A stretch of DNA of 64,000 nucleotides from Escherichia coli. Its GTDB lineage: Bacteria; Pseudomonadota; Gammaproteobacteria; Enterobacterales; Enterobacteriaceae. The DNA lies in assembly GCF_016026235.1 (NCBI RefSeq), contig NZ_CP065613.1. One strand, given 5' to 3'. Position 1 is the first letter of the stretch; every line of letters begins with the position of its first letter. A model generated the notes under the pieces. That model saw only the letters and a list, made by a program, of their open reading frames with translations, did no database searches and had not been told where the DNA came from. Both the position numbers and the translations under genes were made by a program. Positions 3,045-63,272 of this stretch are shown piece by piece.

Positions 3045-3590
3045 TTATTTTAAGGAAAGCAACTGCTCTACGGTCATGTTTTTAATTGCGCCCCGGTTTA
3101 CAAGAGTCCAGCCCTGTTTTTCCAGATAAAACCGGAAAGTCTCCAGGGTACAGACCAGTGCGCCATCAGGAACGGTTTCGGTGAATTCGACATTGCCGAA
3201 TTTGTCGAAGTGAACAACCAGAGTGCGACCATCACCCGGAATCATCTTGTCAGCAGGTGGGGTGTTATTCTGGCGCAGTTCGGCCTCCATGCGGTCGAAC
3301 TCAGCAATGTAGGCTTCCTTGAATGTGGCGGCTTTTTTGCCCGTGAAGCCCATCACCAGGAAAACGAAGCCGTTTTTGGTGATTTGGTAGGCGTTATAAG
3401 AATTGCCGCGGTGTTCGAATTTAACCCGCGAAAAGTTGCTGGTTAAAAATAGTTCAGAACATTCGAGGGATTCTATTTTTTGAACAACATGGTGATGCTG
3501 CTTGCCAAAAAACTCAGCAATCGAAATAGAAGTAGTGACGGCGCGACCATTTTCGATGGTTACGTCAGGGTGAGAAAGGGTAGTAGCCAT
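3045..3590 (-). CDS. Rha-family phage regulatory protein
   Basis: Rha-like N-terminal domain from MATTLSHPDVTIENGRAVTTSISIAEFFGK; ATG at 3590. The 98-codon in-frame extension up to 3884 is low-complexity and contains a terminator, so not taken as coding. Confidence 0.55.
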   Translation of the reverse strand: MATTLSHPDVTIENGRAVTTSISIAEFFGKQHHHVVQKIESLECSELFLTSNFSRVKFEHRGNSYNAYQITKNGFVFLVMGFTGKKAATFKEAYIAEFDRMEAELRQNNTPPADKMIPGDGRTLVVHFDKFGNVEFTETVPDGALVCTLETFRFYLEKQGWTLVNRGAIKNMTVEQLLSLK

Positions 3591-3754
3591 AATGACATCC
3601 TCAAGTGATAAGTTAATTAACTCACCAGCAGAGGTGCTAATCTCATGGGTGGTGAGACGCACAGGGTTAGCACTACCGGTCACTCGAGAACCCGGCCAGC
3701 CTTGCGGCTGCCCCGCACGCCTCACCATAATTTGAATGTGGCTGTGCATTACGC

Positions 3755-3781
3755 ATAAAAAAACCGCTTCAGCGCGGTTAT
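3755..3781 (-). terminator. Rho-independent terminator (minus strand)
   Basis: Minus-strand hairpin AACCGC-GCTGAA-GCGGTT followed by TTTTTTT. Confidence 0.4.
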
Positions 3782-3905
3782 GCGCTCGAGTAACTTTCGG
3801 GGTGCTAATCCCGGCACCCGTTTTATGAGGTGCAGGTGCACTATAATTCCACCCGTTCTGGTTTTCAATAGCTACATTCAACATTTTCTCTTTCCTTTCA
3901 TCACC

Positions 3906-4060
3906 GAAGTGAATTTTGTGATGCGGTGCCTGGTGCCTCCAGGTGACGTTAACCAGTTAACAATTACAGTCGGCTTTCCCACCCAAAACAATAAGGACTA
4001 ACATGACTTTTAACTGTGCCGCGTGCGCTTAGCCGCATTCACCGCATCACAAAATTCACT
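3906..4060. repeat. Perfect 22-bp inverted repeat pair (3906-3927 and 4039-4060) flanking 111 bp
   Basis: AAGTGAATTTTGTGATGCGGTG at 3906-3927 and its exact reverse complement at 4039-4060; encloses palindrome GTTAACCAGTTAAC. Confidence 0.7.
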
Positions 4061-4291
4061 TTAAAAAGGGCGGACATCAGCCAGCAATTAAACCGATGCC
4101 GCCAACTGGTACTTCACACAGCAATGTCGTTATTTACAACCGGAAGCGCACTCCCACCATTTAAATTTCACAGACAAGACCGACTCTTTATGAATACCGG
4201 AAATGCGCCTTCGTGTTGTGCCCGGTTTTATTTCACCACCTCCGGGCTTTGGTGGTATCTTTACTGAAGTTCTCACACAACCAGTAAGGAA

Positions 4292-4924: not shown

Positions 4925-5229
4925 GTTGACCCCATTTCCCCTTAACGCCGGGTGGCGGAACGTTTTATCTACTGCGCTTTGTATCAATCAACAACTGCCG
5001 TCATGTTCGTATGCCTCAGGCTGGCTACTTAGCCCTGTTCAGTGACTGGATAACTCGAGGTATTGTCCTGCCGTTCTCTGGTGGGGCGTTGTTTGGATAT
5101 GCTTATTAAACACAATTTGTTTTCTTATGTCAACACGTAATGTGTTTTATGGTGGGTGTCATATGATGATGCTACAAAAAAGCCCGCTGATAGCGGGCTG
5201 ATTGGCATATTACTGTGATAGCAAGATCA

Positions 5230-5649
5230 TTATTCCGGTGGGGGATTATCTTTAATCCTGCCTCTCAAATATTTTTCTACATACTCATCGATTTCTTTTA
5301 GCCGGACTTCAAATAGCTCAATCATTCGTTGTTGTTCTGAGCCCGGTAGCTGGTTAAACAACTCAAGAAGTTTTCGTTGGGATTCATTTAACCACAATTC
5401 AGAAGATTCCTGTTCTCCAAAGAGGAGCTCAGGAGGAGATATGCCAAGTGCCTTTCCCAATACGACAGCGTCATGTACTCCAACATTTCTGCTGCCCGCC
5501 TCATAGTTACCTATACGCGATTGCGTCCATCCGCAGATTTCAGCAAGTTTTCCTTGAGATAAACCAAGCTTCTGCCTGCGCTCTTTAAGACGCATTGCAA
5601 TTTTGTCATTGAGCCTACTAGCGGCAATTTTTTCGTTTTCTTTTTCCAT
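5230..5649 (-). CDS. HTH (XRE-family) prophage repressor, cI/RacR-like; no S24 peptidase domain
   Basis: HTH motif LGLSQGKLAEICGWTQSRIGNYE; divergent from cro-like gene; AAGGA Shine-Dalgarno. Confidence 0.7.
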   Translation of the reverse strand: MEKENEKIAASRLNDKIAMRLKERRQKLGLSQGKLAEICGWTQSRIGNYEAGSRNVGVHDAVVLGKALGISPPELLFGEQESSELWLNESQRKLLELFNQLPGSEQQRMIELFEVRLKEIDEYVEKYLRGRIKDNPPPE

Positions 5650-5660
5650 TGCATCCTTGT

Positions 5661-5721
5661 ATCACGAATCGTGATTTACATAAAACACAAAACAGCTTGA
5701 CTATATAACACAAGGTGTGTT
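5661..5721. promoter_or_regulatory. Immunity-region operators and divergent promoters
   Basis: Perfect palindrome ATCACGAATCGTGAT (5661-5675); inverted repeat AACACA-agg-TGTGTT (5707-5721) overlapping a TTGACT -35-like hexamer (5697-5702) upstream of the cro-like gene. Confidence 0.45.
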
Positions 5722-5745
5722 TAAAATTGTCATCGGAGGTTTTCA

Positions 5746-5988
5746 ATGAACAAAATTTCAACATATCGAAAACAGCTTGGGCTGTCTCAAAGACAACTTG
5801 CTGTTCAGTTAGGGTGGATACAAAGCCGACTGGCAAATTACGAAGCAAATTTTCGTACCCCTGGACTAGAGGAGTGCAGAAAAATTGTTTCTACCCTTAA
5901 TCGGCTTGGCGCTCATTGTGGACTTGACGATGTATTCCCCCCAGACGGTAAGCATAGCGAAAACAGCATAGGAGCGGTTGATTCATGA
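5746..5988 (+). CDS. Cro/YdaS-like HTH regulator
   Basis: HTH LGLSQRQLAVQLGWIQSRLANYE; GGAGG Shine-Dalgarno; divergent from repressor. Confidence 0.65.
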   Translation: MNKISTYRKQLGLSQRQLAVQLGWIQSRLANYEANFRTPGLEECRKIVSTLNRLGAHCGLDDVFPPDGKHSENSIGAVDS

Positions 5989-6407
5989 AAATCAGGCATG
6001 AGCACATCGAATCAGTGTTGTTAGCCCTGGCAGCCGAAAAAGGGCAGGCGTGGGTCGCTAACGCAATTACTGAAGAATATCTGCGCCAGGGGGGAGGTGA
6101 ATTGTCTCTGACACCAGGCAAGGACTGGAATAATCAGCAGAACATCTATCATCGTTGGTTAAAAGGTGAAACGAAAGCGCAAAGGGAAAAAATTCAGAAA
6201 CTGATCCCTGCGGTTCTGGCAATTCTTCCGCGCGAGCTGCGTCACCGACTCTGCATCTTCGATACCCTGGAACGCCGTGCATTACTGGCGGCGCAGGAAG
6301 CGTTGAGTACGGCAATTGATGCGCATGATGATGCAGTCCAGGCCGTTTACCGGAAAGCGCATTTCAGCGGCGGCGGGTCTTCCGACGATTCTGTCATTGT
6401 TCATTAA
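5985..6407 (+). CDS. YdaT-like prophage protein
   Basis: 140 aa, same length and position as Rac YdaT; start overlaps cro-like stop. Confidence 0.5.
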   Translation: MKIRHEHIESVLLALAAEKGQAWVANAITEEYLRQGGGELSLTPGKDWNNQQNIYHRWLKGETKAQREKIQKLIPAVLAILPRELRHRLCIFDTLERRALLAAQEALSTAIDAHDDAVQAVYRKAHFSGGGSSDDSVIVH

Positions 6408-6470: not shown

Positions 6471-7619
6471 ATGGCCGCATTACCATACATGCAACTGTAC
6501 ATAGCTGATTACCTGGCTGACACCATGCATTTGTCAGCAGAGGAGCACGGCGCGTATTTGTTGCTGATGTTCAATTACTGGCAAACAGGAAAGCCAATAC
6601 CCAAAAACAGGTTGGCAAAAATTGCCCGTCTGACTAACGAGCGATGGGTTGATGTTGAACCATCCTTGCGGGAGTTTTTTTGTGATAACGGCGACGAATG
6701 GATGCATCTTCGGATTGAGGAAGATCTGGCATCTGTCAGAGAAAAATTAACCAAAAAATCAGCCGCAGGAAAAGCATCTGTTCAGGCCAGAAGAAGCAGA
6801 AAGGAAGCAGATGTTCAAACAAAACAAGAGAGAAATTTAACAGGTGTTCAAACAGATGTTGGAGTGATGTTCGAACATGATGCCAACACAAAGGCAACTA
6901 ATAAAGATACAGATAAAGATCTAAAAACAGATCTAACCCATCCCAAACCCTTCCCTTCCGGAAGGGAGTTTCGGGATTTTGTGGCTGGAGTGCTTGAGGG
7001 GAGATTATCTGGCGGTACTGCAGCGGAATTTTGTAATTCTGCGGTGGTTGCGTTGCAGGCTGCTGGCCTGGATGTCTGTCGTGAGTATCCGGTGCCAGAG
7101 CGTGGTGACGGTTGCGGAGGGCGGATTGATATCGTCGTGACTGACAGGAACGGTGTCCGGTGTGGGATCGAGCTTGACCGAAATTCTCCGCGACAGAAAT
7201 CACTGCTCAAAATCGGTGCTGTTGAAACCGGGATATGTGTCTTGCGGCGCAGTGATATCGCAAGGCACACCGAGCAGGGAATTCTGGTTATCGGTGGGGC
7301 TGTTCGCCAGAAAAAATTTGACCCGTTGTCAGTTGATCTGCCCGACTGGTTGCCAGAAACACTCTGGCATGAGTGGGTCCAGTTCAGGCAGGCATTGCGA
7401 AAACCGATTCGAACGGAGCAGGGCGCTAACGGGGCGATACGGGAACTGGAAAAATTCCGTCAGCAGGGTTTTACACCTGAGCAGGTGATTCGACACAGCA
7501 TCGCCAATGAATACCAGGGTCTGTTCGCGCCGAAAGGTGTTCGGCCTGAGACGTTGCTCCGACAGGTTAACACCGTCTCGTTGCCGGACAGTGCGATCCC
7601 GCCAGGCTTCAGGGGGTAA
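6471..7619 (+). CDS. Replication initiation protein (DUF1376/YdaU-like) with extended central region
   Basis: N-terminal YMQLYIADYLADTMHLSAEEHGAYLLLMFNYW resembles DUF1376; ATG at 6471 chosen over track start 6420. Confidence 0.55.
   Translation: MAALPYMQLYIADYLADTMHLSAEEHGAYLLLMFNYWQTGKPIPKNRLAKIARLTNERWVDVEPSLREFFCDNGDEWMHLRIEEDLASVREKLTKKSAAGKASVQARRSRKEADVQTKQERNLTGVQTDVGVMFEHDANTKATNKDTDKDLKTDLTHPKPFPSGREFRDFVAGVLEGRLSGGTAAEFCNSAVVALQAAGLDVCREYPVPERGDGCGGRIDIVVTDRNGVRCGIELDRNSPRQKSLLKIGAVETGICVLRRSDIARHTEQGILVIGGAVRQKKFDPLSVDLPDWLPETLWHEWVQFRQALRKPIRTEQGANGAIRELEKFRQQGFTPEQVIRHSIANEYQGLFAPKGVRPETLLRQVNTVSLPDSAIPPGFRG
6811..6935. repeat. Iteron-like repeats plus AT-rich tract inside replication gene (putative ori)
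   Basis: ATGTTCAAAC (6811), GTGTTCAAAC (6845), ATGTTCGAAC (6867) followed by AT-rich AATAAAGATACAGATAAAGATCTAAAAACAGATC. Confidence 0.4.
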
Positions 7620-7625
7620 CAGACC

Positions 7626-8372
7626 ATGAAAAATATTGCGACAGGAGGCGTTCTGGAGCGTATCCGCAGACTGACCCCACCACATGTAACCGCCCCATTC
7701 AGAACGGTTGCGGAGTGGCGCGAGTGGCAACTTGCTGAAGGCCAGAAACGTTGCGAGGAGATCAACCGCCTGAATCGTCAGTTGCGGGTGGAAAAAATCC
7801 TGAACCGCTCCGGCATCCAGCCGTTGCACCGGAAGTGTTCGTTTGCGAATTACCGGGCGCAGAACGACGGTCAGCGACATGCACTGAGTCAGGCGAAATC
7901 CATAGCTGACGAACTGATGACAGGCTGTACGAATTTTGTGTTCAGCGGTAAGCCCGGCACCGGAAAAAATCATCTTGCAGCCGCGATTGGCAACCGGCTG
8001 ATGGCGAAGGGGCGTAGCGTGATTATCGTCACCGTGTCCGATGTCATGAGCGTGTTGCATGAGAGCTACGACAACGGCAAATCCGGTGAAAAATTTTTAC
8101 AGGAGCTTTGTGGTGTTGACCTGCTGGTCCTGGATGAAATTGGCATGCAGCGGGATACGAAAAACGAGCAGGTGGTACTGAACCAGATTGTTGATCGCCG
8201 GACGGCATCGTTACGCGGTGTGGGGATGCTGACAAATATTAACCATGCAGCGATGAATACACTTCTCGGCGAGCGGGTGATGGATCGCATGGTCATGAAC
8301 GGCGGGCGCTGGGTGAATTTTAACTGGGAGAGCTGGCGTCCGAATGTTAGCCATTCGAGGGTTGTTAAGTAG
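7626..8372 (+). CDS. DnaC-like helicase loader (IstB-like AAA+ ATPase)
   Basis: Walker A GKPGTGKNHLAAAIG, Walker B LLVLDEIG; follows initiator gene. Confidence 0.75.
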   Translation: MKNIATGGVLERIRRLTPPHVTAPFRTVAEWREWQLAEGQKRCEEINRLNRQLRVEKILNRSGIQPLHRKCSFANYRAQNDGQRHALSQAKSIADELMTGCTNFVFSGKPGTGKNHLAAAIGNRLMAKGRSVIIVTVSDVMSVLHESYDNGKSGEKFLQELCGVDLLVLDEIGMQRDTKNEQVVLNQIVDRRTASLRGVGMLTNINHAAMNTLLGERVMDRMVMNGGRWVNFNWESWRPNVSHSRVVK

Positions 8373-8386
8373 TTTCAGGAGGATTT

Positions 8387-8809
8387 ATGGCGAAACCTTT
8401 TACTCCCGAACAGCGGGAAGAACTGAAGACGCGAATTGTGGAACTCGTGCATCAGGACGGTCGGGTCACGATTCGGCAGTTGTCAGATGAAACAGGTATC
8501 AGTCGTGCGTCTGTCGGTCGCTTATGCATGGAACTGGTCGCAAGTGGTGATGTATATAATTCTGGCTACGGGGTATTTCCCTCTGAACAGGCTCATAAAG
8601 ACTGGCAAAACGCCCGCAAAAAGCTATCGAGGGTAAAGGTGAAGAAACCGGTTGTGGTTGATCCTGACCTTATCTGGTCATTACCAGACGGAGAAATACG
8701 CCGCTACGACAGGCGCCTGAATATAATCTGTCGCGAGTGCCGGAAGAGCGAAGCTATGCAGCGCGTGCTGGCGTTTTATCAGGGGAAATTTCAGGAGGCG
8801 GTACTGTGA
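8387..8809 (+). CDS. hypothetical prophage protein (possible winged-helix)
   Basis: 140-aa ORF directly after dnaC-like gene. Confidence 0.45.
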   Translation: MAKPFTPEQREELKTRIVELVHQDGRVTIRQLSDETGISRASVGRLCMELVASGDVYNSGYGVFPSEQAHKDWQNARKKLSRVKVKKPVVVDPDLIWSLPDGEIRRYDRRLNIICRECRKSEAMQRVLAFYQGKFQEAVL

Positions 8810-8852
8810 GTAAAATTAGCTATGAAGTGGTCAACAAAAACTGGCCACCGAG

Positions 8853-10000
<1,148 letters not shown>

Positions 10001-10119
10001 TATGGCACCTGTGTTGTTCTGAGGTGAGCATATCACCTCTGTTCAGGTGGCCAAATTCAGTAAACCACTTCACTATCAGGCTTCAATTACCGCTGGTATT
10101 CGCATCAAAGGAGAGGAGC

Positions 10120-10476
10120 ATGGAAATAAAACCAGAAGATGAGTTAAGCAATATCGTTTTATTTCCGGTAAAAGAGGATGACCCACGTAATCAGGTTAAT
10201 TTTCTTTATGAACCATCGGAAAGACCATATTGCCATCACGCCTCTGTCCGGGTTGACGAAAAAGAGCGTCAGGTCCGCTGTAAAATCTGCGGTGCGGTTG
10301 TGGAGCCGTTTGACTGGATGCTCTCTGTGGCAAAAAGAGAAACCAGACTGGCAGATGATGTAAGGCTATTGCGCCAGGAGGAACAGGAAAGGCGGAGAAA
10401 TATAGAAAAGCTGATACAGATTGAGCGTAACGCGAAAGCGCGGATACGCAGGGCGACAAAATCCAGAACTGAATAA
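10120..10476 (+). CDS. hypothetical protein with Cys-rich segment and basic coiled-coil tail
   Basis: ATG at 10120 after AAAGGAGAGGAG; 118 aa. Confidence 0.5.
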   Translation: MEIKPEDELSNIVLFPVKEDDPRNQVNFLYEPSERPYCHHASVRVDEKERQVRCKICGAVVEPFDWMLSVAKRETRLADDVRLLRQEEQERRRNIEKLIQIERNAKARIRRATKSRTE

Positions 10477-10568
10477 TTAAATTTAGCACTGTTAAAAATT
10501 TAATCCTTAACCGGAGGGATTTCTGCACCCTCAAATCATCAGGAGACCGCCCGAAAGGGCGGTAATGA

Positions 10569-10787
10569 ATGGTTACATTATTTAGAAAAAAATATCCGCG
10601 AAAGAGTAGAACAACAGAATTCCTGTTTCTCATTCTGTTTATCGTGTTGATGACACCGATATCCCCACTAATTTTTGTCTGGATAATCGGAAAAATAATT
10701 GAGCCAGTTATTGAATTGTATAACGACGTGGTATGGGCGTCATTCAACACACTGCACAATAAAATTAATCCGTATAAGGAAAGCTGA
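10569..10787 (+). CDS. hypothetical small membrane protein
   Basis: 72-aa ORF with a hydrophobic core (two predicted transmembrane segments). Confidence 0.4.
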   Translation: MVTLFRKKYPRKSRTTEFLFLILFIVLMTPISPLIFVWIIGKIIEPVIELYNDVVWASFNTLHNKINPYKES

Positions 10788-10788
10788 T

Positions 10789-11154
10789 ATGGCACTGACG
10801 AAAAAACAACGTGCAGAACTGCGCATGAAGTTCGGTGGTCGCTGCGCTTATTGCGGCTGCGAACTTGGCGAAAAGTGGCATGCAGACCATGTAAAACCGG
10901 TCATTCGTTTTGATGGAAATATGCTTCACCAGGAACGTGACGATATATCCAACATGGTACCAGCATGCCACCCATGCAATCTGCACAAGCATTGCAGTAG
11001 CCTGGAAGATTATCGACGAATTATCAGTGATGGTCGTCGTGAATTCCTTGCGTCCGGGAAAGGCAAAGCGCTGGTTCGTATGGGATTGGTTGAAATGAAA
11101 TCTGACCCGGTTGTGTTCTGGTTTGAAAAATATCAAGAAGGGGCTACGGCATGA
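10789..11154 (+). CDS. HNH endonuclease
   Basis: CAYCGCEL...HADHVKP...CHPCNLHKH HNH motif; ATG at 10789 after TAAGGAAAG. Confidence 0.7.
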   Translation: MALTKKQRAELRMKFGGRCAYCGCELGEKWHADHVKPVIRFDGNMLHQERDDISNMVPACHPCNLHKHCSSLEDYRRIISDGRREFLASGKGKALVRMGLVEMKSDPVVFWFEKYQEGATA

Positions 11155-11816
11155 CCACTATTACCAAAGAGCGACTGCAATGGCTGGCTAACATTTCTGG
11201 CCGCGATGATATTGACGATATAGACGGCGGTGAAATTCGTGAACTGGCGCTTATCGCTCTGGCATCACTGGAAGCAGAGCCTGTAGCGGAATGCATTGTT
11301 GAAGATGGGGGCATGTGTATTGACGGGTTCGGTGAGTATGTGGGTCACTCGCTGCCTGATGGAATGCATGAGCTTTATGCTGCCCCGCGAATGCGACAAC
11401 CTGATGGATGGAAAGCCGTAGCTGTAGCGTGGAAGGTGACGTTTACTCAAGTTGACCAGGAATCTAATACGTTCACTGCTATATATTTTGACAAAGCGGA
11501 AGTTGAGCGTTGGGTACGACTGCATAAAGCATGTGATTTTCGGGCAGATATAACACCGCTTTACGCAGCGCCGGCAGTGCCGGTTGCAGTAAACGACGAC
11601 ATGGCTTACGCATTCCATCACGCACTGTCAGATTCATCGCTTGGCTCTGATGAAATCGAAGAAATTAAAACCGGTTTGCGTGCTGCCTTTGCCAACGTCA
11701 CTATCCAACCAGAGCCGATAGTGCCGGATGAAATCGGGCCAAACGATAGTAATACGTTTGATTATGTTGATGGCTGGAACGCCTGCCGCGCTGCCATGCT
11801 TAAGGGAGATAAATAA
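11151..11816 (+). CDS. hypothetical prophage protein
   Basis: 221-aa ORF, start overlaps HNH stop. Confidence 0.5.
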   Translation: MTTITKERLQWLANISGRDDIDDIDGGEIRELALIALASLEAEPVAECIVEDGGMCIDGFGEYVGHSLPDGMHELYAAPRMRQPDGWKAVAVAWKVTFTQVDQESNTFTAIYFDKAEVERWVRLHKACDFRADITPLYAAPAVPVAVNDDMAYAFHHALSDSSLGSDEIEEIKTGLRAAFANVTIQPEPIVPDEIGPNDSNTFDYVDGWNACRAAMLKGDK

Positions 11817-12181
11817 TGATTAATCGAACCAAACTGGAGCACATTCTCGAATATGCCAGGCAGCAGAAATGTATTGGGCAACTTTGTAAAATTCCACCAG
11901 GAGATATGGTTGAAATCGTGGAAATGGCCATGCGTAAGGCTGGCAACTCTCCGGTAACTCCGGCTGGCTGGATAAGCTGTAGTGATGCAGTTCCTGCTGA
12001 ATATTGCGATGTGATTCTTCTCGATGATCTCGGGAATGTATTCCCCGGTTCCTGGGATAAGGTTTTTTGCCCCACTCGTGGCGGGAATAAGATGGCTTTT
12101 GTGGACAAAGACGGCGTTGAAGTAGAGAGCTCAACTCACTGGATGCCGCTACCGGAACCACCGCAGGAGGTGAATCAATGA
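11816..12181 (+). CDS. DUF551-like prophage protein
   Basis: C-terminal FVDKDGVEVESSTHWMPLPEPP resembles DUF551. Confidence 0.55.
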   Translation: MINRTKLEHILEYARQQKCIGQLCKIPPGDMVEIVEMAMRKAGNSPVTPAGWISCSDAVPAEYCDVILLDDLGNVFPGSWDKVFCPTRGGNKMAFVDKDGVEVESSTHWMPLPEPPQEVNQ

Positions 12182-12261
12182 CCTGGCCTGAGGCATTCAC
12201 CACGGTAGGAATTGCGATGGCGGTGGCGCTGGTGGTGTATTCGATTTGCCGTTGGGGTTAA
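12178..12261 (+). CDS. possible 27-aa hydrophobic peptide
   Basis: ATGA overlap with upstream stop; MTWPEAFTTVGIAMAVALVVYSICRWG; directly followed by a terminator. Confidence 0.25.
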   Translation: MTWPEAFTTVGIAMAVALVVYSICRWG

Positions 12262-12266
12262 CAAAC

Positions 12267-12298
12267 AAAAACCCCGGATTGATGGTCCGGGGTTTTTG
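12267..12298 (+). terminator. Rho-independent terminator
   Basis: CCCCGGA-TTGATGG-TCCGGGG hairpin followed by TTTTT. Confidence 0.6.
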
Positions 12299-12479
12299 AA
12301 GGAAACAAAACAGAAACAGCAATTGCCGTTACCTGTTGTTACCATGGCAAGTAAACGTATCTCAGGCGAGCGCATTGCGCCGTTCTGACGCAGATAAACT
12401 AGCCTGGATAGATGGTGCTGGCAATAAAAAATAGCGTTTTCTTATCGGTGTCGGTAAGATTGCTGCGGGTGCTTGAGGC

Positions 12480-12635
12480 TGTCTGCCTCGGGCATGTCAC
12501 TGTAAGGCAGACAGAGAAAAGCCCCAGTTAACATTACGCGTCCTGCAAGACGCTTAACATTAATCTGAGGCCCAATCTATGTCTCACAAATGTAGGTTAG
12601 CCTCTTACGTGCCGAAAGGCAAGGAGAAGCAGGCT
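12480..12635. promoter_or_regulatory. hok mRNA leader with stem-loops; expected location of sok antisense RNA
   Basis: Inverted repeat GTCTGCCT...AGGCAGAC (12481-12512); 9-bp hairpin GGCGGGAGA-GTAA-TCTCCCGCC downstream at 12800-12822. Confidence 0.35.
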
Positions 12636-12791
12636 ATGAAGCAGCAAAAGGCGATGTTAATCGCCCTGATCGTCATCTGTTTAACCGTCATTGTGACGGC
12701 ACTGGTAACGAGGAAAGACCTCTGCGAGGTACGAATCCGAACCGGCCAGACGGAGGTCGCTGTCTTCGTAGACTACGAATCTAGAGAGTAA
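12579..12791 (+). CDS. mok: mok-like in-frame extended reading frame overlapping hok
   Basis: 70-aa ORF ending at the hok stop, as MokC extends HokC in E. coli. Confidence 0.4.
   Translation: MSHKCRLASYVPKGKEKQAMKQQKAMLIALIVICLTVIVTALVTRKDLCEVRIRTGQTEVAVFVDYESRE
12636..12791 (+). CDS. hok: Hok/Gef-family type I toxin
   Basis: MKQQKAMLIALIVICLTVIVTALVTRKDLCEVRIRTGQTEVAVF is near-identical in pattern to HokD/RelF; AAGGAG Shine-Dalgarno. Confidence 0.8.
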   Translation: MKQQKAMLIALIVICLTVIVTALVTRKDLCEVRIRTGQTEVAVFVDYESRE

Positions 12792-13069
12792 GAGTGACCA
12801 GGCGGGAGAGTAATCTCCCGCCACCTTTGATGTGTCAGGCATCCTCAACGCACCCGCACTTAACCCGTTTCGGCGGTTTTTTTTGTTGCGTGCTGAATAC
12901 GCAGGGTGAAAAATAACCATATATTTGATTATATACACAACAAAAAATAAAAGTCATTGTACTTGCACATTAAACAATCAAATATACGGCGTGAAATAAA
13001 TGTTTTTCAGATTAATATTTTTGTCTCTATGTGGATATAACCGTTTGTACTTATAAACCTGGAGGCATC

Positions 13070-13282
13070 GTGGAAAAAATAAAGAAACTATTTAGTAGCA
13101 AATACGCAGTCATACGTCGTGATGACCTGTCAGTTATAGTCGAAATGGATTACTTCCCTGAAACCCCAAAATCAATAATGTATCGTAATGGTCGAAAGGC
13201 AATTTTTTTACCGATGAGGGTAAGTGACATTATGGGAAATGATAAACTGCTGGATGAATTGCGAGTCAGAGCATCCTGTTAG
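13070..13282 (+). CDS. hypothetical protein
   Basis: GTG at 13070 preceded by GGAGG; track start 13031 lacks a ribosome-binding site. Confidence 0.4.
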   Translation: MEKIKKLFSSKYAVIRRDDLSVIVEMDYFPETPKSIMYRNGRKAIFLPMRVSDIMGNDKLLDELRVRASC

Positions 13283-13353
13283 TATTGGCATTAATTCTGG
13301 TATACTACATAACGGGCTGAACACCCATTCTACTGCGCCAGCGGAGAACTACG

Positions 13354-13953
13354 ATGGCGCATATACAACTGGTCAAACAAACCTCTTCCGGATTACTTCT
13401 CCCGGCGACGCCGGAGAGTTGCGATTTTTTGCATCAAATCAAAATAGGTGAGTGGATACACGCAGACTTTAAGCGTGTGCGTAACTACGCATTCCACAAG
13501 CGTTTTTTCAAACTCCTGCAACTGGGATTTGATTACTGGACTCCGGTCGGTGGGGCGATCACGCCTCGCGAACGAAAACTGGTATCAGGCTTCGTTGATT
13601 ACCTGTGCGAATCAGTAGGTCGGGAACACACTCCAGCCCTGAGTGATGCCGCAGAGCAATACCTTAATACAGTTGCGACATGCAGAACCCGGGATACGGC
13701 ATTGCTAAAGTCGTTTGACGCTTTCCGCGAGTGGGTAACCATTCAGGCCGGATTTTACACCGAGCATATTTATCCTGATGGTAGTCGTGGGCGCAGGGCA
13801 AAATCTATCGCATTTGCGAACATGGACGAAACCGAGTTTCAGCAGGTTTATAAATCTGTACTGAATGTGCTGTGGAACTGGATCCTGTTCCGTAAATTTT
13901 CCTCTCCGGAACAAGTCGAAAATGTGGCCGCGCAGCTACTGGAGTTTGCGTAA
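13354..13953 (+). CDS. DUF1367-like lambdoid prophage protein
   Basis: 199-aa ORF in the nin-like region upstream of Q. Confidence 0.5.
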   Translation: MAHIQLVKQTSSGLLLPATPESCDFLHQIKIGEWIHADFKRVRNYAFHKRFFKLLQLGFDYWTPVGGAITPRERKLVSGFVDYLCESVGREHTPALSDAAEQYLNTVATCRTRDTALLKSFDAFREWVTIQAGFYTEHIYPDGSRGRRAKSIAFANMDETEFQQVYKSVLNVLWNWILFRKFSSPEQVENVAAQLLEFA

Positions 13954-14243
13954 TGGTGGATTTACGTAAAGCGGCGCGGGGGCAGATGTGCACCGTCAGA
14001 ATTCCTGGCTACTGCAATCACGATCCGGAAACGTCTGTGCTGGCGCATTACCGACTGGCGGGAACGTGCGGAACAGCGACAAAACCACACGATATGCAGG
14101 CGGCGATTGCCTGTAGCTCATGCCACGATTTAATCGACGGGCGGGTAAAAACAAGCGATTACACCAAAGAAGAATTACGCCTGATACATGCAGAAGGTGT
14201 TTTTCGCACGCAAGAAATCTGGAGAAAGGAAGGTTATTTATGA
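13953..14243 (+). CDS. Zinc-binding prophage protein (DUF1364-like)
   Basis: Cys/His pattern C..C...CSSCH; translationally coupled to neighbours. Confidence 0.45.
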   Translation: MVDLRKAARGQMCTVRIPGYCNHDPETSVLAHYRLAGTCGTATKPHDMQAAIACSSCHDLIDGRVKTSDYTKEELRLIHAEGVFRTQEIWRKEGYL

Positions 14244-14794
14244 TTTACCCAACAAATACAGGCAAAAGCGGGGAACACCTTCGTCTCACCACGCTGGAAA
14301 GTGTCTGGATTCAGGGAAAACTGCGCATGTGGGGGCGCTGGTCGTATATTGGCGGCGGTAAGACGGGGAATATGTTCAACCAGTTGTTGGCCTCTAAAAA
14401 GCTGACAAAAACGGCAATTAACGAGGCGCTCCGGAGGATGAAAAAAGCAGGTCTGGACAAACCTGAACTTGAGGCTTTTTTGCGGGATATGATCAACGGC
14501 AAGCAAAAAAGCTGGCTGGTGCATTGTACTGACGCAGAGGCGTTATGCATTGATCGGGTGATTAGTGAAGTGCTGGCAGAACACCCAGGATTGATTTGTA
14601 TCCTCCGGCAACGATATGAAGGGAGTGGGATGACTAAGCGAAAAATGGCTGAATTGCTGAATGATTCACACCCTGAGTGGTGTTATCGGACGTGTTGCAG
14701 TCGGGTTGATGTATGGCTAAATCTTGCTGAATATATGCTCTATCTACCGATGCGTGATGCATTCTCTTCCGGGGATCTAAAAACCGTCTGTTGA
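14240..14794 (+). CDS. Late-gene antitermination protein Q
   Basis: Position before tRNA/lysis region; AAGGAAGG Shine-Dalgarno; Cys-containing C-terminus. Confidence 0.55.
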   Translation: MIYPTNTGKSGEHLRLTTLESVWIQGKLRMWGRWSYIGGGKTGNMFNQLLASKKLTKTAINEALRRMKKAGLDKPELEAFLRDMINGKQKSWLVHCTDAEALCIDRVISEVLAEHPGLICILRQRYEGSGMTKRKMAELLNDSHPEWCYRTCCSRVDVWLNLAEYMLYLPMRDAFSSGDLKTVC

Positions 14795-14883
14795 CTCAAT
14801 CTGTTATCCGGGGCTATATTCCTCACGCGCCAGCAAAATCTGGCGTCGGGATTGGCGTCCCGGATGTTTACGGAGCGATATGA

Positions 14884-14904
14884 GACGCGCCCGCGTCTTT
14901 TTTC
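14884..14904 (+). terminator. Hairpin plus T-run downstream of Q (possible tR'-like terminator)
   Basis: GACGCG-CCC-GCGTC followed by TTTTTT. Confidence 0.4.
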
Positions 14905-15066
14905 ATATCGTTTGCACAGTCTCATTCGCGATTTATGGCGGGCTGTGTGGGGGAGCCGAAAGGCTCGCCGGTTTCCGTACCCGGTTACGCCAACCCTGCA
15001 CAGTTCGCCACCAGTTCGATTGGCGTCGTCGGTGGCGATAATTTCCAAATGTACGGAGTTATCGTT

Positions 15067-15624
15067 ATGACCACTCAAATCTCTGTTGAAACTCTCTCCC
15101 CGATCACCCATAACCAGATTCCTGTTATTACCACCGAACTTTTGGCGCAGCTTTACGGCACTGAGCCGGTGCGTATTCGCCAGAATCATCATGAGAACAA
15201 AGTACGCTTCGTTGAAGGGAAACACTTTTTCAAAGTTGTTGGTAATGACCTTAAAGAATTGCGGGTAGCTTTAAACTACTCACAAAATCCCATCTCTCCC
15301 AAAGCCCGCTCCCTCATCCTCTGGACAGAACGAGGCGCAGCACGCCACGCCAAAATGCTCGAAACCGATCAGGCGTGGGATGTGTTCGAAAAACTGGAAG
15401 ACTGCTATTTCAGTCAAAAGGATCCGTCAACGCCAGTTTCATGCCAGAAAAGTTACGACACGCGAGTTCTCTGTTATCAGAGAGGCGGTGTCACTGTTTC
15501 CACAATTCAGTTACGGGATGATGATATTGTTATTTCCCTTGAGTCATGGCTGGAACTGGCGAGAGCCAATGGTTGGTTTGTTGTTCGCAGAGATAAACTG
15601 GTGGAAAGGTTGATGCAGCTTTAA
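15067..15624 (+). CDS. ORF6N/Bro-N-like antirepressor-family protein
   Basis: ATG at 15067 after GGAG; N-terminal IPVITTELLAQLYG...KVRFVEGKHFFKV resembles ORF6N domain. Confidence 0.5.
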   Translation: MTTQISVETLSPITHNQIPVITTELLAQLYGTEPVRIRQNHHENKVRFVEGKHFFKVVGNDLKELRVALNYSQNPISPKARSLILWTERGAARHAKMLETDQAWDVFEKLEDCYFSQKDPSTPVSCQKSYDTRVLCYQRGGVTVSTIQLRDDDIVISLESWLELARANGWFVVRRDKLVERLMQL

Positions 15625-15832: not shown

Positions 15833-15909
15833 GGCCCTTTAGCTCAGTTGGTCAGAGCGAGCGACTCATAATCGCCAGGTCGCTGGTTCAAGTCCAGCAA
15901 GGGCCACCA
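15833..15909 (+). tRNA. tRNA with CAU anticodon (Met or Ile2, ileZ-like)
   Basis: Manual cloverleaf: acceptor GGCCCTT/AAGGGCC, anticodon loop CTCATAA, 3' CCA. Confidence 0.8.
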
Positions 15910-15910
15910 A

Positions 15911-15987
15911 CCACCACTAGCTCATCCGGATAGAGCATCAACCTTCTAAGTTGACGGTGCGAGGTTCGAGTCCTCGGTGGTGGGCCA
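15911..15987 (+). tRNA. tRNA-Arg (UCU)
   Basis: Acceptor CCACCAC/GTGGTGG, anticodon loop CTTCTAA, T-loop TTCGAGT, 3' CCA. Confidence 0.75.
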
Positions 15988-15989
15988 GC

Positions 15990-16065
<76 letters not shown>

Positions 16066-16068
16066 TAT

Positions 16069-16143
<75 letters not shown>

Positions 16144-46239: not shown

Positions 46240-46548
46240 TGAATAAATCCTTTAGTTATTTTATTTGCCTTTTATCCCCATTTCGGGGAGTGAAAACATC
46301 CTAAAGGAGAAGTTCAGTTAGCCGATAAATATCATTTGTTACGCCTTAAGTAAAACCTTAATCAAAAAATTCCTCTGAAATGATAATAAGTCTGGTGAAT
46401 GTATCGAAGATAATACATACAAAATAAAAATTATACTTTTAATTTTCTATACGTTATTCTGCGCGGGTTATATGCCTTTATTGTCACAGATTTTATTTTC
46501 TGTTGGGCCATTGCATTGCCACTGATTTTCCAACATATAAAAAGACAA

Positions 46549-46580
46549 GCCCGAACAGTCGTCTGGGCTTTTTTTTAGAA
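46549..46580. terminator. Bidirectional hairpin terminator between ydbK and ompN
   Basis: AAGCCC...GGGCTT hairpin flanked by A-run and T-run. Confidence 0.45.
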
Positions 46581-46604
46581 TTGGATAATCCTTATCCAGA
46601 GCAT

Positions 46605-60942: not shown

Positions 60943-62988
60943 TTAATCGACAAAATCACCGTGCTGCCTTGCCACCAGCGTCAGAATTGAATACAGCGCC
61001 ACCGGGGTTTGATGCTGATTGAATACCTCTACCGCCCATTCCACCACACCTGTTGGTTTTTCTTCTGCGCTACGCTGTTTTTTCAGCGTCTTGCGCTTAC
61101 AGGTGAGACGCACCTGGATGGTATCGCCTGGTTTTACTGGCTCGATAAAACGCAAGTTTTCCAGCCCGTAGTTAGCAATGACCGGACCAACTCCGGCATC
61201 GACAAACAGACCCGCAGCCGCAGAAAGCACAAAATACCCATGCACCACACGCTCACCGAAAATAGATTCGGCAGCAGCAATCTTATCCATATGCGCATAG
61301 AAATGATCGCCGCTGAGGCAAGCAAAGTTAACAATATCGGCCTCTGTCATTGTGCGGCGGGGAGTCAGCAGGCTGTCGCCTGGTTGCAGCTCCTCAAAAT
61401 ATTTGCGGAACGGATGAATACGATCTTCTTCGACTTTCGCGCCACGCACCCACTGTTTACTGATAGCGGCAAGCATCGACGGGCTACCCTGTACAGCGGT
61501 TCGCTGCATGTAATGTTTCACCGCCCGTAAACCACCTAATTCTTCACCGCCTCCTGCGCGACCAGGCCCACCATGTACCAGTTGTGGCAGTGGGGAGCCA
61601 TGCCCGGTGGATTCTTTTGCCGACTCTTCATTGAGGATCTGAATTCGCCCATGCGTACGCGCCGCGTCGGCAATAAACTGACGCGCAATTTGCGGATCAG
61701 CCGTCACCAGCGTTCCCGCAAGGCTACCGCCGCCTGCACAAGCCAGTTGCAGAGCATGTTGCTGGTTTTGTGCTGGCATTAGCGTTGCGACAGGGCCAAA
61801 GGCTTCTGTTGCATGTACCGCCGGTGTTTCATCCGGCTGCGGACAGTACAATAAGGTTGGCGGGAAGAAGGCACCCGCAGCAGATAAATCCGCCTGACCA
61901 CCGAGGCGAATCTCGCATCCTGCAGCCAGCAATGTGTTCACTTTTTCCTGCACATCGGCACGCTGCTCAGCATTTACCAGTGCGCCCATTTTCACGCCTT
62001 CCTGCGCAGGATCACCGACCACGACTTTCTGTAATCGCGCAACCAGAGCGTCACTGACAGCATTAACCAATACTTGCGGCACAATAATCCGCCGGATTGC
62101 CGTACATTTTTGCCCGGCTTTTGTGGTCATCTCACGCACAACTTCACGAATAAACAGCGCAAACTCCGGGCGATCCGGGGTGACATCTTCGCCCAGTACG
62201 CAGCAGTTCAGGGAATCAGCTTCCATAGTGAAGGGGATAGATTTGGCTACGATATTTGGCTGAACTCGCAGCATCTGTCCGGTCGCCGCTGACCCCGTGA
62301 AAGTCACCACATCCTGGCTGTCCAGATGATCCAAAAGGTCGCCCGCACTACCGCAGATCAGACTAATTGCGCCTTCGGGAACAAGACCACTATCGACAAT
62401 TGATTTCACCATCGCCTGAGTCAGTTGGGCCGTCGCGGTAGCTGGTTTGATGATGGCTGGCATTCCGCCCAGCCACGTTGGTGCCAGCTTTTCCAGCATT
62501 CCCCAGCAGGGGAAGTTAAAGGCGTTAATATGCACTGCCACGCCTGACTTTGAGGTCAGTACATGGCGCGCGGCAAATCCACCTTCTTTTGATAAGGGGA
62601 TCAATTCATCTTCCGGCCACAGCGTATCGTCAGGCAGCTCCCGGCTACCGAGGCTGGCGTAAGTAAATAACGTCCCAATACCGCCTTCAATATCAACCCA
62701 ACTGTCTGCCCGCGTTGCGCCTGTTTGCGCAGAAAGAGCATAGAAACGCTCTTTTTCACTCAGCAGATGTTTAGCGACCGCTTTAAGCATCGCCGCACGT
62801 TCGATAAAGGTCATAGCGCGAAGGGCTGGGGCACCTTTTTCAATGGCAAACAGGCGGGCAGCCGCCATATCAAGACCTTCACGGGTCACTTCCCATAACG
62901 CCTCGCCGCTAATAGCGTGATGAATCAAACGGCTACGGCCCCGGCCAGACTGCCAGGTACCGGATAAGAAACTGGCTAACTGCTGCAT
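60943..62988 (-). CDS. paaZ: Bifunctional oxepin-CoA hydrolase / 3-oxo-5,6-dehydrosuberyl-CoA semialdehyde dehydrogenase
   Basis: 681 aa: N-terminal aldehyde dehydrogenase domain, C-terminal MaoC-like hydratase domain. Confidence 0.9.
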
Positions 62989-63272
62989 CGCTACTCTCCA
63001 GATGTTTCACATTTCTGTTGCTAATAGTTAAATCACGAATCATAAAAAGCAAGGCGTATTTTAACGAAATGTTAACTGTGCGATCTGTATATCAACTACT
63101 AAAAACATTAATGCACTGATAAATAATGAGTTATAAAAATAGGGTGCGAAATCCGTCACAGTTCAAACATACAAAATTTGTGATTTTAGTTAACCATTGT
63201 GTAACTTTCATAAAACAACATGATTCGTGTTTTTAATTAATTCACGAAAACTGGAATCGTAAAGGTGATGAC
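62989..63272. promoter_or_regulatory. Divergent paaZ / paaA promoter region
   Basis: AT-rich 284-bp intergenic region between divergent paaZ and paaA; regulatory sites not resolved by eye. Confidence 0.35.

Follow-up and report, generated by a model that had tools for sequence, protein, structure and literature searches.

We have analysed a 64,000-nt stretch of Escherichia coli DNA (contig NZ_CP065613.1 of RefSeq assembly GCF_016026235.1), referred to here as the window, which contains a lambdoid prophage with a divergent repressor and Cro-like gene pair at positions 5230-5988. We hold with high confidence that this pair belongs to an immunity switch with the operators mapped below. Judged by its sequence, the repressor is a member of the Gifsy/DicA class of short non-cleavable repressors, and homology, synteny and co-occurrence suggest, at slightly better than an even chance, that the prophage would be induced through an antirepressor, for which a 70-amino acid open reading frame (ORF) at 13070-13282 is the main candidate. 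Taken as a whole, this explanation is the best that we can offer, and we consider it reasonably probable. DNA binding, the promoter positions, the contact between antirepressor and repressor and the inducing signal are all points that we infer. The class of mechanism, a non-cleavable repressor paired with an antirepressor, is already known from Gifsy (2011) and DicA/Rem (2023); what is new is a heteroimmune member with its own DNA-binding domain and operators, and we found no paper containing these operator sequences in the searchable literature.

The whole element is of the lambdoid prophage type, and the leftward and rightward helix-turn-helix (HTH) genes of the switch flank a short control region of 96 bp, at 5650-5745. 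The genes and the terminator that follows the repressor gene are as follows.

5230-5649, minus strand: repressor gene, an ORF of 139 amino acids with Pfam HTH_3 as its only domain (E 4.6e-13)
5746-5988, plus strand: Cro-like gene, an ORF of 80 amino acids, also Pfam HTH_3 only (E 6.7e-10)
5181-5199, minus strand: intrinsic terminator 3' of the repressor gene, between that gene and the putative leftward promoter; detected in a terminator scan as an 8-bp stem, 6 of its pairs being GC, with a T run behind it

A first-pass annotation of this DNA, made from its letters, had described a divergent 139-amino acid HTH repressor and a Cro-like gene around a 96-bp intergenic region, and its coordinates and the length proved exact. 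Divergent HTH repressor and Cro genes about a short control region are what a lambdoid CI/Cro switch comprises. The recognition helices of the 2 proteins, IQSRLANYE in the Cro-like protein and TQSRIGNYE in the repressor, are near-identical (common pattern GW-QSR(I/L)-NYE), as are the longer stretches that hold them, GWTQSRIGNYEA in the repressor and GWIQSRLANYEA in the Cro-like protein, and the repressor HTH is 45% identical to the Cro-like protein over 42 amino acids (BLASTP, E 2e-9). Such similarity is as expected for competitors at the same sites. The Cro-like protein also matches a solved structure, 28tn_A ('lambda repressor-like protein', 82 amino acids), at E 8e-15.

We mapped one family of 15-bp operators, with the consensus A[A/T]CAC[A/G]-N3-[C/T]GTG[T/A]T, to 3 sites in the rightward operator region (OR) and 2 in the leftward one (OL). 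These sites, together with the putative rightward (PR) and leftward (PL) promoters and a candidate promoter for the repressor gene (PRM), are listed below; scores are from a position-specific scoring matrix (PSSM) built from the window sites plus related-phage sites.

5661-5675, no strand: OR3, ATCACGAATCGTGAT; a perfect dyad, readable as 7-1-7 or 6-N3-6, and the site nearest the repressor start codon
5684-5698, no strand: OR2, AACACAAAACAGCTT; weak, with one good half-site (half-site scan) and a PSSM score of 9.8; its final TT is also the start of the PR -35
5707-5721, no strand: OR1, AACACAAGGTGTGTT; in the PR spacer, overlapping the -10 by 2 nt
5109-5123, no strand: OL1, AACACAATTTGTTTT; in the PL spacer, found by pattern search
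5132-5146, no strand: OL2, AACACGTAATGTGTT; abuts the PL -35, found by pattern search
5697-5725, plus strand: putative PR, TTGACT (5697-5702), a 17-nt spacer and TTTAAA (5720-5725), placed from sequence and from conservation in phages Chris1 and pAEv1818; it would serve the Cro-like gene and ydaT
5105-5133, minus strand: putative PL, TTGACA (5133-5128), a 17-nt spacer and TTTAAT (5110-5105)
5656-5684, minus strand: candidate PRM, -35 TTTATG (5684-5679) and -10 TACAAG (5661-5656), with OR3 in the spacer and the ATG 7 nt downstream; predicted from sequence

Several observations indicate that these sites are not a chance collection. Perfect 6-N3-6 palindromes occur twice in the 96-bp region versus 20 times in 64 kb (0.03 per 96 bp), and when the intergenic region was shuffled 20,000 times, only 0.075% of the results contained two or more of them. 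When the pattern derived from OR was allowed one mismatch, six sites were found in the window, four of them within 5109-5721 and only two, both weaker, in the remaining 63 kb. With the PSSM, four of the window's five best scores fell within the same ~600 bp (5109-5721), OL1 and OL2 being the top two. The third-best score belongs to AACATGATTCGTGTT at 63217-63231, in host intergenic DNA ~230 bp upstream of a 681-amino acid ORF (60943-62988, minus strand), and this operator-like site is probably a chance match.

The first-pass annotation had reported the perfect 15-bp palindrome, which is present as ATCACGAATCGTGAT at 5661-5675, and an inverted repeat overlapping a -35-like TTGACT. That repeat, AACACAaggTGTGTT, and the hexamer (5697-5702) both exist; the two do not overlap, the repeat starting 4 nt after the hexamer and filling the spacer. 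The OL/PL cluster, which lies just past the repressor terminator, had been missed. As read from the sequence, PR and PL share one register, in which 4 nt separate the -35 from an operator that runs 2 nt into the -10, with OR2 or OL2 at the edge of the -35. Operator centres are spaced by 23 + 23 bp in OR and by 23 bp in OL. The OR/OL arrangement is of the lambda type: on sequence evidence, related dyad operators lie at the divergent promoters and a second cluster lies at the leftward promoter. A promoter scanner called neither PR nor PL, because their -10 hexamers, TTTAAA and TTTAAT, lack an A at position 2, and these promoters were placed by hand and by conservation. The centre of OR2 falls near -41 of the candidate PRM. 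By analogy with lambda cI and PaaR2 (PMC8630535), the repressor mRNA from this promoter is possibly leaderless. Two features count against that assignment: an AAGGA Shine-Dalgarno-like motif precedes the repressor ATG, which argues against an obligatorily leaderless mRNA, and a second -10-like hexamer, TATAGT at 5705-5700, is a possible competing PRM -10.

Phages of three genera, with repressors that are 60-65% identical, keep the operator type and its register. Among the sequenced phages with a full-length relative of the repressor are Chris1 of Citrobacter (65% identity), pAEv1818 of Aeromonas (60%) and Kp4865-4 of Klebsiella. In Chris1 and pAEv1818, the two that we examined in detail, the gene order is repressor, cro, YdaT-type cII and replication genes. 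Their PR sequences, TTGACT-ATCT-AACACATTATGTGTT-TAAT in Chris1 and TTGATA-GTCA-GACACAATTTGTGTC-TAAT in pAEv1818, match the window PR in geometry; also, the Chris1 equivalent of OR3, ACCACGTTACGTGTT, lies next to the repressor start at the same distance as in the window. An OL-like pair follows the repressor terminator in each phage (AACACGGCATGTGTT in Chris1, GACACGATACGTGTC and ATCACGAATAGTGAT in pAEv1818).

To the right of the Cro-like gene, the window continues with a gene and a binding site known from the Rac and CP-933P prophages.

5985-6407, plus strand: ydaT, the CII analogue; Pfam YdaT_toxin, phrog_163 'CII-like activator', 95.7% identical to K-12 Rac YdaT (BLASTP)
5978-5995, no strand: YdaT box, TTGATTCATGAAAATCAG; spans the ydaT start codon and matches published boxes

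The published boxes are the footprinted Rac YdaT box, ATGATTCATGAAAATCAA, and the CP-933P consensus TTGATT-N6-AATCAA (PMC11879457, PMC9986795), so that the window holds both the YdaT protein and a box of the TTGATT-N6-AATCAA type at the ydaT start, as those prophages do. The box is probably the -35 activator site of a leftward PRE-like promoter. Downstream of ydaT are genes for YdaU and then a DnaC-like protein (Pfam). We found no BLAST similarity of Rac RacR or YdaS to the window repressor or the Cro-like protein. A gene for the small RNA MicC, at 46464-46584, marks host DNA beyond the prophage. From MicC, YdaT and the unrelated RacR/YdaS, we conclude that this is a lambdoid prophage at the Rac site in which the racR-ydaS cassette was swapped for another one, and the mosaic joint is located at the YdaT box. 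The first-pass proposal of an immunity switch agrees with these results: divergent HTH genes, one operator family in both OR and OL, and the YdaT/CII analogue with its box directly downstream.

The repressor was modelled with AlphaFold from a 41-sequence alignment (predicted local distance difference test score, pLDDT, 88). The model is all-helical, with a five-helix HTH domain (~residues 1-77), a linker (~78-88) and a C-terminal two-helix hairpin (89-99 and 103-133), and Foldseek matched it to HTH domains only (C.AhdI, P22 C2, 434, lambda and SinR). Neither Pfam nor the model nor Foldseek revealed an S24 peptidase domain. Also, we found 155 database homologues of ~91-202 amino acids, from Salmonella, Serratia, Klebsiella, Citrobacter, Yersinia, Pectobacterium and others; for the best 120 of the 155, the precomputed Pfam annotation gave HTH-type families or none, and no S24. 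The absence of a LexA-like cleavage domain, asserted earlier from the letters, is borne out by this domain search. The most conserved part of the family is the C-terminal hairpin, LFxQLPExEQxRMIDLFxxRLKEIDEYVEKYLRGR, which presumably serves oligomerisation and partner binding. This C-terminal domain is 51% identical to that of the Gifsy-like SPN3UB CI (E 7e-13) and 46% identical over 35 amino acids to Gifsy-2 GtgR (E 1e-5), and DicA matches the repressor from end to end (29% identity; E 2.8e-14). The NCBIfam DicA model gave 57 bits against a curated cut-off of 101, so that the repressor is a relative of DicA and not DicA itself.

Proteolysis could in principle inactivate such a repressor, either by RecA-stimulated self-cleavage at an unrecognised site or through Lon/ClpXP, and the single feature in favour of this is an Ala-Gly dipeptide at residues 51-52. 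However, this dipeptide lies within the HTH domain, whereas the autocleaving S24 repressors have an Ala-Gly site in the linker together with a Ser/Lys dyad domain, and neither an S24 fold nor such a dyad domain was found in the window repressor. The homologous Gifsy repressors, moreover, are not cleaved during mitomycin C induction; they are inactivated by GfoA/GftA, which are encoded after a LexA-controlled dinI (PMC3121763). We regard inactivation by proteolysis as very improbable. Since the repressor has no protease domain, derepression through a small antirepressor is the most likely route.

The best candidate for a cognate antirepressor, judged by sequence and position, is the following small ORF, given here with its right-hand neighbour.

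13070-13282, plus strand: 70-amino acid ORF with a GTG start and a GGAGG Shine-Dalgarno sequence; phrog_1813 (E 4.5e-32)
13354-13953, plus strand: irsA/DUF1367 (NinB-like) gene, 54% identical to Gifsy-2 STM1020 (irsA homologue); phrog_319

The small ORF sits between the terminator of a hok/sok locus (12467-12791) and the irsA homologue. This is the position of gfoA/gftA in the Gifsy prophages (order dinI, antirepressor, irsA) and of rem in Qin (order hokD, rem), and the Qin protein Rem is known to derepress the DicA-controlled promoter, DicA being antagonised (PMC10448788). The ORF shares 32-34% identity with the ORFs behind dinI in SPN3UB, Chris1 and pAEv1818. Members of phrog_1813 also match phrog_340, the Rem family, which Rem itself matches at 4e-21: the E value is 5e-10 for the Chris1 member, 5e-6 for the SPN3UB member and, weakly, 0.014 for the pAEv1818 member.

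Linkage of the ORF to the repressor was examined in a sample of 80 IMG/VR loci chosen from the repressor side, with counts taken over the loci that could be evaluated. A homologue of the ORF lay beside irsA in 49 of 53 such loci, including all 12 evaluable loci of the Salmonella type, in which identity is 84% for the repressor and 54% for the small ORF. Among 5426 complete E. coli genomes, the small-ORF region was present in 175 and the repressor region in 161 (~3%; these include O145, O121, O111, O55:H7 and some O157:H7); among the matches listed, the small ORF was 6-9 kb from the repressor in every genome common to both sets. In a phage collection, 8 of 10 records with the small ORF were also among the 16 records with the repressor C-terminal domain, and their tail types differ. 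Actinobacillus phage vB_Apl-pPE4 (PP818812.1) carries, at 6590-14044, an E. coli-type module with a DicA-like repressor, YdaT, hok and a copy of the small ORF; the repressor C-terminal domain is 72% and the small ORF 96% identical to those of the window. The host assignment of this record looks doubtful.

We looked for SOS control of the prophage with the LexA consensus and with a PSSM built from E. coli SOS boxes, the training sites of which score at least 12.9. The exact pattern CTGT-N8-ACAG had no match in the window, and one mismatch gave 29 matches against 19 expected, none convincing; the PSSM maximum in the window was 11.7, under the training sites. SOS control in cis was rejected on the grounds of the missing exact box and this maximum. 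A near-miss site, CAGTTAACAATTACAG at 3954-3969, upstream of a module with a Rha-type gene that is described below, has its critical CTG mutated. In relatives the picture is different. The ORFs behind dinI in Chris1, pAEv1818 and SPN3UB all come after LexA boxes with scores of 25-28. Chris1 and pAEv1818 have a terminator and a canonical LexA box upstream of dinI (scores 27.5 and 25.5), and among 13 distant IMG/VR homologues of the 70-amino acid ORF, 12 have a LexA box scoring 19-28 upstream of dinI or of the ORF itself, the thirteenth being cut by the contig end. The LexA box and dinI that precede the antirepressor gene in Gifsy were not found ahead of the ORF in the window, and the Salmonella relatives share this LexA-less arrangement. 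An AT-rich block of ~55 nt upstream of the ORF (12908-12965) is kept in the Salmonella relatives and may serve to control the candidate antirepressor. Within this block lie a good leftward promoter-like sequence, ATGACT-N18-TATAAT (12957-12928), and a 20-mer, ATTTGATTATATACACAACA (12923-12942), that resembles a decayed LexA box with a score of 6.1. With no LexA box, no dinI, no recognisable rightward promoter and no operator at the candidate genes, the release of the antirepressor could come from feed-forward by read-through from PR, from a non-SOS signal or from the antirepressors of other prophages.

A number of observations weigh against the ORF as the inducing antirepressor. The ORF itself does not match phrog_340, the link running through other members of phrog_1813, and hhalign of the small-ORF family versus Rem was not significant (E 0.19). 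The AlphaFold model of the ORF is of low confidence, with a pLDDT of 59. GftA belongs to another family, phrog_4847, and the ORF has no detectable similarity to it. Among 44 evaluable loci, near-identical small ORFs lie beside RacR (1) or other DicA-like short repressors (5), so that the ORF is not paired exclusively with the window repressor. There is no dinI in the window, and the best LexA score upstream of the ORF is 6.1, versus 19-28 in the relatives; no rightward promoter could be recognised in the 190 bp upstream of it, and the ORF may be expressed only after derepression, as feed-forward, or not at all. Finally, the rightward early operon is interrupted as follows.

8853-10036, minus strand: insertion element of the IS3 family (orfA 9698-10036, orfB 8853-9671), between the replication genes and the nin-like region with the 70-amino acid ORF

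This element, which is missing from a close relative prophage in strain VL40, may be polar, and this copy of the prophage may be defective.

A further proposal is that there is no dedicated inducer, the switch being either bistable and stochastic, as reported for CP-933P and dicBp, or a locked cryptic element that silences toxic early genes. The lack of a LexA box in the window and the insertion element in the early right operon fit such a proposal, and spontaneous switching without an inducer is known for CP-933P PaaR2/YdaS/YdaT and for DicA/DicC (PMC8630535, PMC10448788). Also, Gifsy-1 of strain D23580 cannot be induced because of one single-nucleotide polymorphism in the promoter ahead of dinI-gfoA (PMC5322425), a condition that loss of the LexA/dinI promoter could mimic here. 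Yet the small ORF is kept beside irsA in 49 of the 53 loci that could be evaluated, with an intact frame and Shine-Dalgarno sequence, and it diverges along with the repressor, which argues for selection; the phage genome of vB_Apl-pPE4 has the same LexA-less arrangement. We consider a switch without an inducer improbable, and return to the small ORF as the main candidate.

The prophage contains two further genes of the antirepressor type, each of them behind a C4 RNA.

3045-3590, minus strand: gene for a Rha-type protein (Pfam Rha) with a Rem-like C-terminal domain (phrog_340, E 2e-4)
3757-3833, minus strand: module 1 isrK/a1b1 RNA (Rfam isrK, 68.5 bits)
3645-3732, minus strand: module 1 C4 antisense RNA (Rfam C4, 78.6 bits)
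14791-14820, plus strand: module 2 promoter, TTGACT-N18-TATATT
14827-14903, plus strand: module 2 isrK/a1b1 RNA (Rfam isrK, 75.6 bits)
14931-15015, plus strand: module 2 C4 RNA (Rfam C4, 77.6 bits; c4-a1b1, 52.2 bits)
15067-15624, plus strand: ORF6N antirepressor-type gene (Pfam ORF6N; phrog_2379 'anti-repressor', E 3e-94; C-terminal domain phrog_340, E 9e-6)

All C4 and isrK matches of both modules exceed the Rfam gathering scores, and each module has its own promoter-like sequence. In an ImmI module of the P1 type, the C4 RNA stands between a1/b1 and a2/b2 targets, the latter at the ribosome-binding site of the antirepressor operon, and the two modules of the window are of this type. In P1, an ImmI-type module controls the antirepressor Ant. 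In module 1 the word GATTAGCACC, paired with GTGCTAA, is repeated in isrK and in the leader, and its complement lies inside C4; module 2 has GATTGGCGTC with ACGCCAA, and GATTGGCGTC and TACGGAG are repeated in isrK and in the leader/Shine-Dalgarno region, the second repeated word of this module lying over the Shine-Dalgarno sequence. The target words differ between the modules by compensatory changes, which suggests two hetero-specific immunities of the ImmI type inside one prophage. By RNAduplex, the energies of C4 with the leader and with isrK were within 1-2.4 standard deviations of shuffled controls; since they are no better than the shuffles, it is the repeated, covarying words and not the energies that point to C4 pairing.

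Several further features lie at or near these modules. Pfam Phage_ASH (PF10554) matches at 3570-3884 (minus strand) and 14935-15066 (plus strand) coincide with the isrK/C4 RNA genes, as upstream extensions of the Rha and ORF6N frames, and here the 'Ash' frames look like RNA genes read as protein; PGAP annotates an over-long 'Rha family' coding sequence in a close relative. Just upstream of the Rha/C4 module there is a perfect 22-bp inverted repeat, AAGTGAATTTTGTGATGCGGTG, with its arms (3907-3928 and 4040-4061) 111 bp apart. Four tRNA genes (15833-16140) follow the ORF6N gene.

The first-pass annotation had named the Rha-like and ORF6N-like genes as its candidate antirepressors, and one or both of their products could be the inducing antirepressor of this prophage. 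Both genes are indeed present (Pfam, PHROG), in families annotated as anti-repressor (phrog_373, phrog_63, phrog_2379); both C-terminal domains match phrog_340, at the E values given above; and hhalign of the small-ORF family with the ORF6N C-terminal domain gave E 5e-4 over 44 columns. With the Rha C-terminal domain, hhalign gave a 12-column match only, and BLASTP found no match between the Rha and ORF6N C-terminal domains; the small-ORF, Rha and ORF6N domains are linked only by the phrog_340 profile. Against these proteins as the inducer, neither gene is consistently linked to the repressor: Rha accompanies it in 5 of 62 evaluable loci and ORF6N in 12 of 23, ORF6N being equally frequent in loci that lack a repressor of the window type or in which none was detected. 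Both are gated by their own C4 RNAs in separate modules like P1 ImmI, and their promoters lack both a LexA box and a repressor operator; at the promoters of all three candidate antirepressor genes, no operator-like site scored above 5 with the PSSM. In addition, the Rha module is placed downstream of PL, in the leftward early region, as FsoA is in Fels-1; FsoA acts on another prophage's repressor and is not needed for the induction of its own prophage (PMC3121763). From the lack of linkage, the C4 gating, the missing LexA box and operator and the FsoA-like placement, the two look like accessory or trans-acting modules, and it is possible that they are trans-acting antirepressors; we think it unlikely that either is the inducer. 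The first-pass candidate list was thus right about the presence of these genes and omitted the better-linked 70-amino acid ORF.

We propose the following mechanism. Binding of the repressor at OR and OL would shut the early operons from PR and PL, and binding at OR3 would autoregulate the repressor's own promoter. The Cro-like protein presumably competes for the operator sites, and YdaT would bind the box over the ydaT start and probably activate a leftward establishment promoter. Derepression would most likely occur by stoichiometric binding of a small antirepressor to the repressor, the main candidate being the 70-amino acid protein of the GfoA/Rem family, with the C4-gated Rha and ORF6N proteins as accessory, possibly trans-acting, antirepressors. 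The ancestral SOS input, a LexA box with dinI, is missing in this E. coli/Salmonella lineage. More speculatively, a repressor-binding domain like that of Rem/GfoA may be present three times in one prophage, under a different control each time: once as the free 70-amino acid protein, which would have lost its ancestral LexA/dinI control, and twice in fusions with the Rha and ORF6N DNA-binding domains, behind the two hetero-specific C4 RNAs. These could form a hub with several inputs, uncoupled from SOS, that decides when the DicA-type repressors of its own and of co-resident prophages are inactivated, a suggestion that we ourselves regard as doubtful.

The operators, with a class of repressor controlled by antirepressors, provide concrete sites for the study of prophage cross-talk in strains with multiple prophages, some of which carry virulence genes. 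Should the small protein have remained the inducer, these prophages would answer to a non-SOS signal or only to other prophages. It would be a possible surprise that SOS control was lost from a gfoA-like gene in a widespread E. coli/Salmonella lineage, and that three Rem-like domains come under three controls.

The window switch resembles that of phage lambda in its divergent repressor and cro genes, its tripartite OR with operator centres 22-24 bp apart, its second operator cluster at the leftward promoter and its CII-type activator. We take the operator core ATCAC-N5-GTGAT and a recognition helix starting with QS to be further likenesses to lambda, as a lead only. In contrast to lambda, the window repressor has 139 amino acids rather than 237 and no S24 domain, only two OL sites are recognisable, and the CII analogue is of the YdaT/POU-like type.

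The two C4 modules resemble the ImmI region of P1/P7 (c4, icd, ant) and the isrK-orf45-anrP region of Gifsy-1 (PMC4825925) in their succession of promoter, a1b1/isrK, C4 and an antirepressor-type gene, and in the repetition of target words on both sides of C4, including the Shine-Dalgarno sequence. Unlike P1 ImmI, they are in a lambdoid prophage, no icd-like ORF was identified in them, and in their proteins Rha or ORF6N is fused to a Rem-like C-terminal domain.

With CP-933P PaaR2/YdaS/YdaT and Rac RacR/YdaS/YdaT (PMC8630535, PMC9986795, PMC11879457), the window shares the order of repressor, an intergenic region of ~96-97 bp, cro analogue, YdaT, YdaU and DnaC-like gene, as well as the conserved YdaT box over the ydaT start, the Rac chromosomal site and possibly a leaderless repressor mRNA. 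It differs in that racR and ydaS are replaced by unrelated genes, in that its operators are unlike the CP-933P repeats (GTTTAGTAA), and in that no paaA2-parE2 pair lies downstream of the window repressor.

The likenesses to the Qin system of DicA, DicC and Rem (PMC10448788) are the end-to-end alignment of the repressor with DicA, the place of the candidate ORF directly after a hok gene and terminator, as for rem, and the match of small-ORF relatives to the Rem profile phrog_340. However, the Cro-like protein and DicC are unrelated, the small ORF has no significant direct similarity to Rem, and no dicB or dicF was seen in the leftward operon of the window.

The comparison with Gifsy-1, -2 and -3 (repressors GfoR/GfhR/GtgR, antirepressors GfoA/GfhA/GftA; PMC3121763) shows differences in several components. 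The DNA-binding domain and operators of the window are different, making it heteroimmune; its lineage has hok/sok and the AT-rich block ahead of the small ORF in place of dinI and a LexA box; and the small ORF is allied to the phrog_1813 proteins of SPN3UB and Chris1 and not to the phrog_4847 protein GftA. Yet the systems are alike in having a repressor of ~136-140 amino acids without a cleavage domain, in the C-terminal motif LFxQLPExE common to these repressors, in a small GTG-started ORF directly upstream of an irsA homologue and kilobases to the right of the replication genes, and in the lambdoid order of repressor, cro, cII analogue and O/P-like genes.

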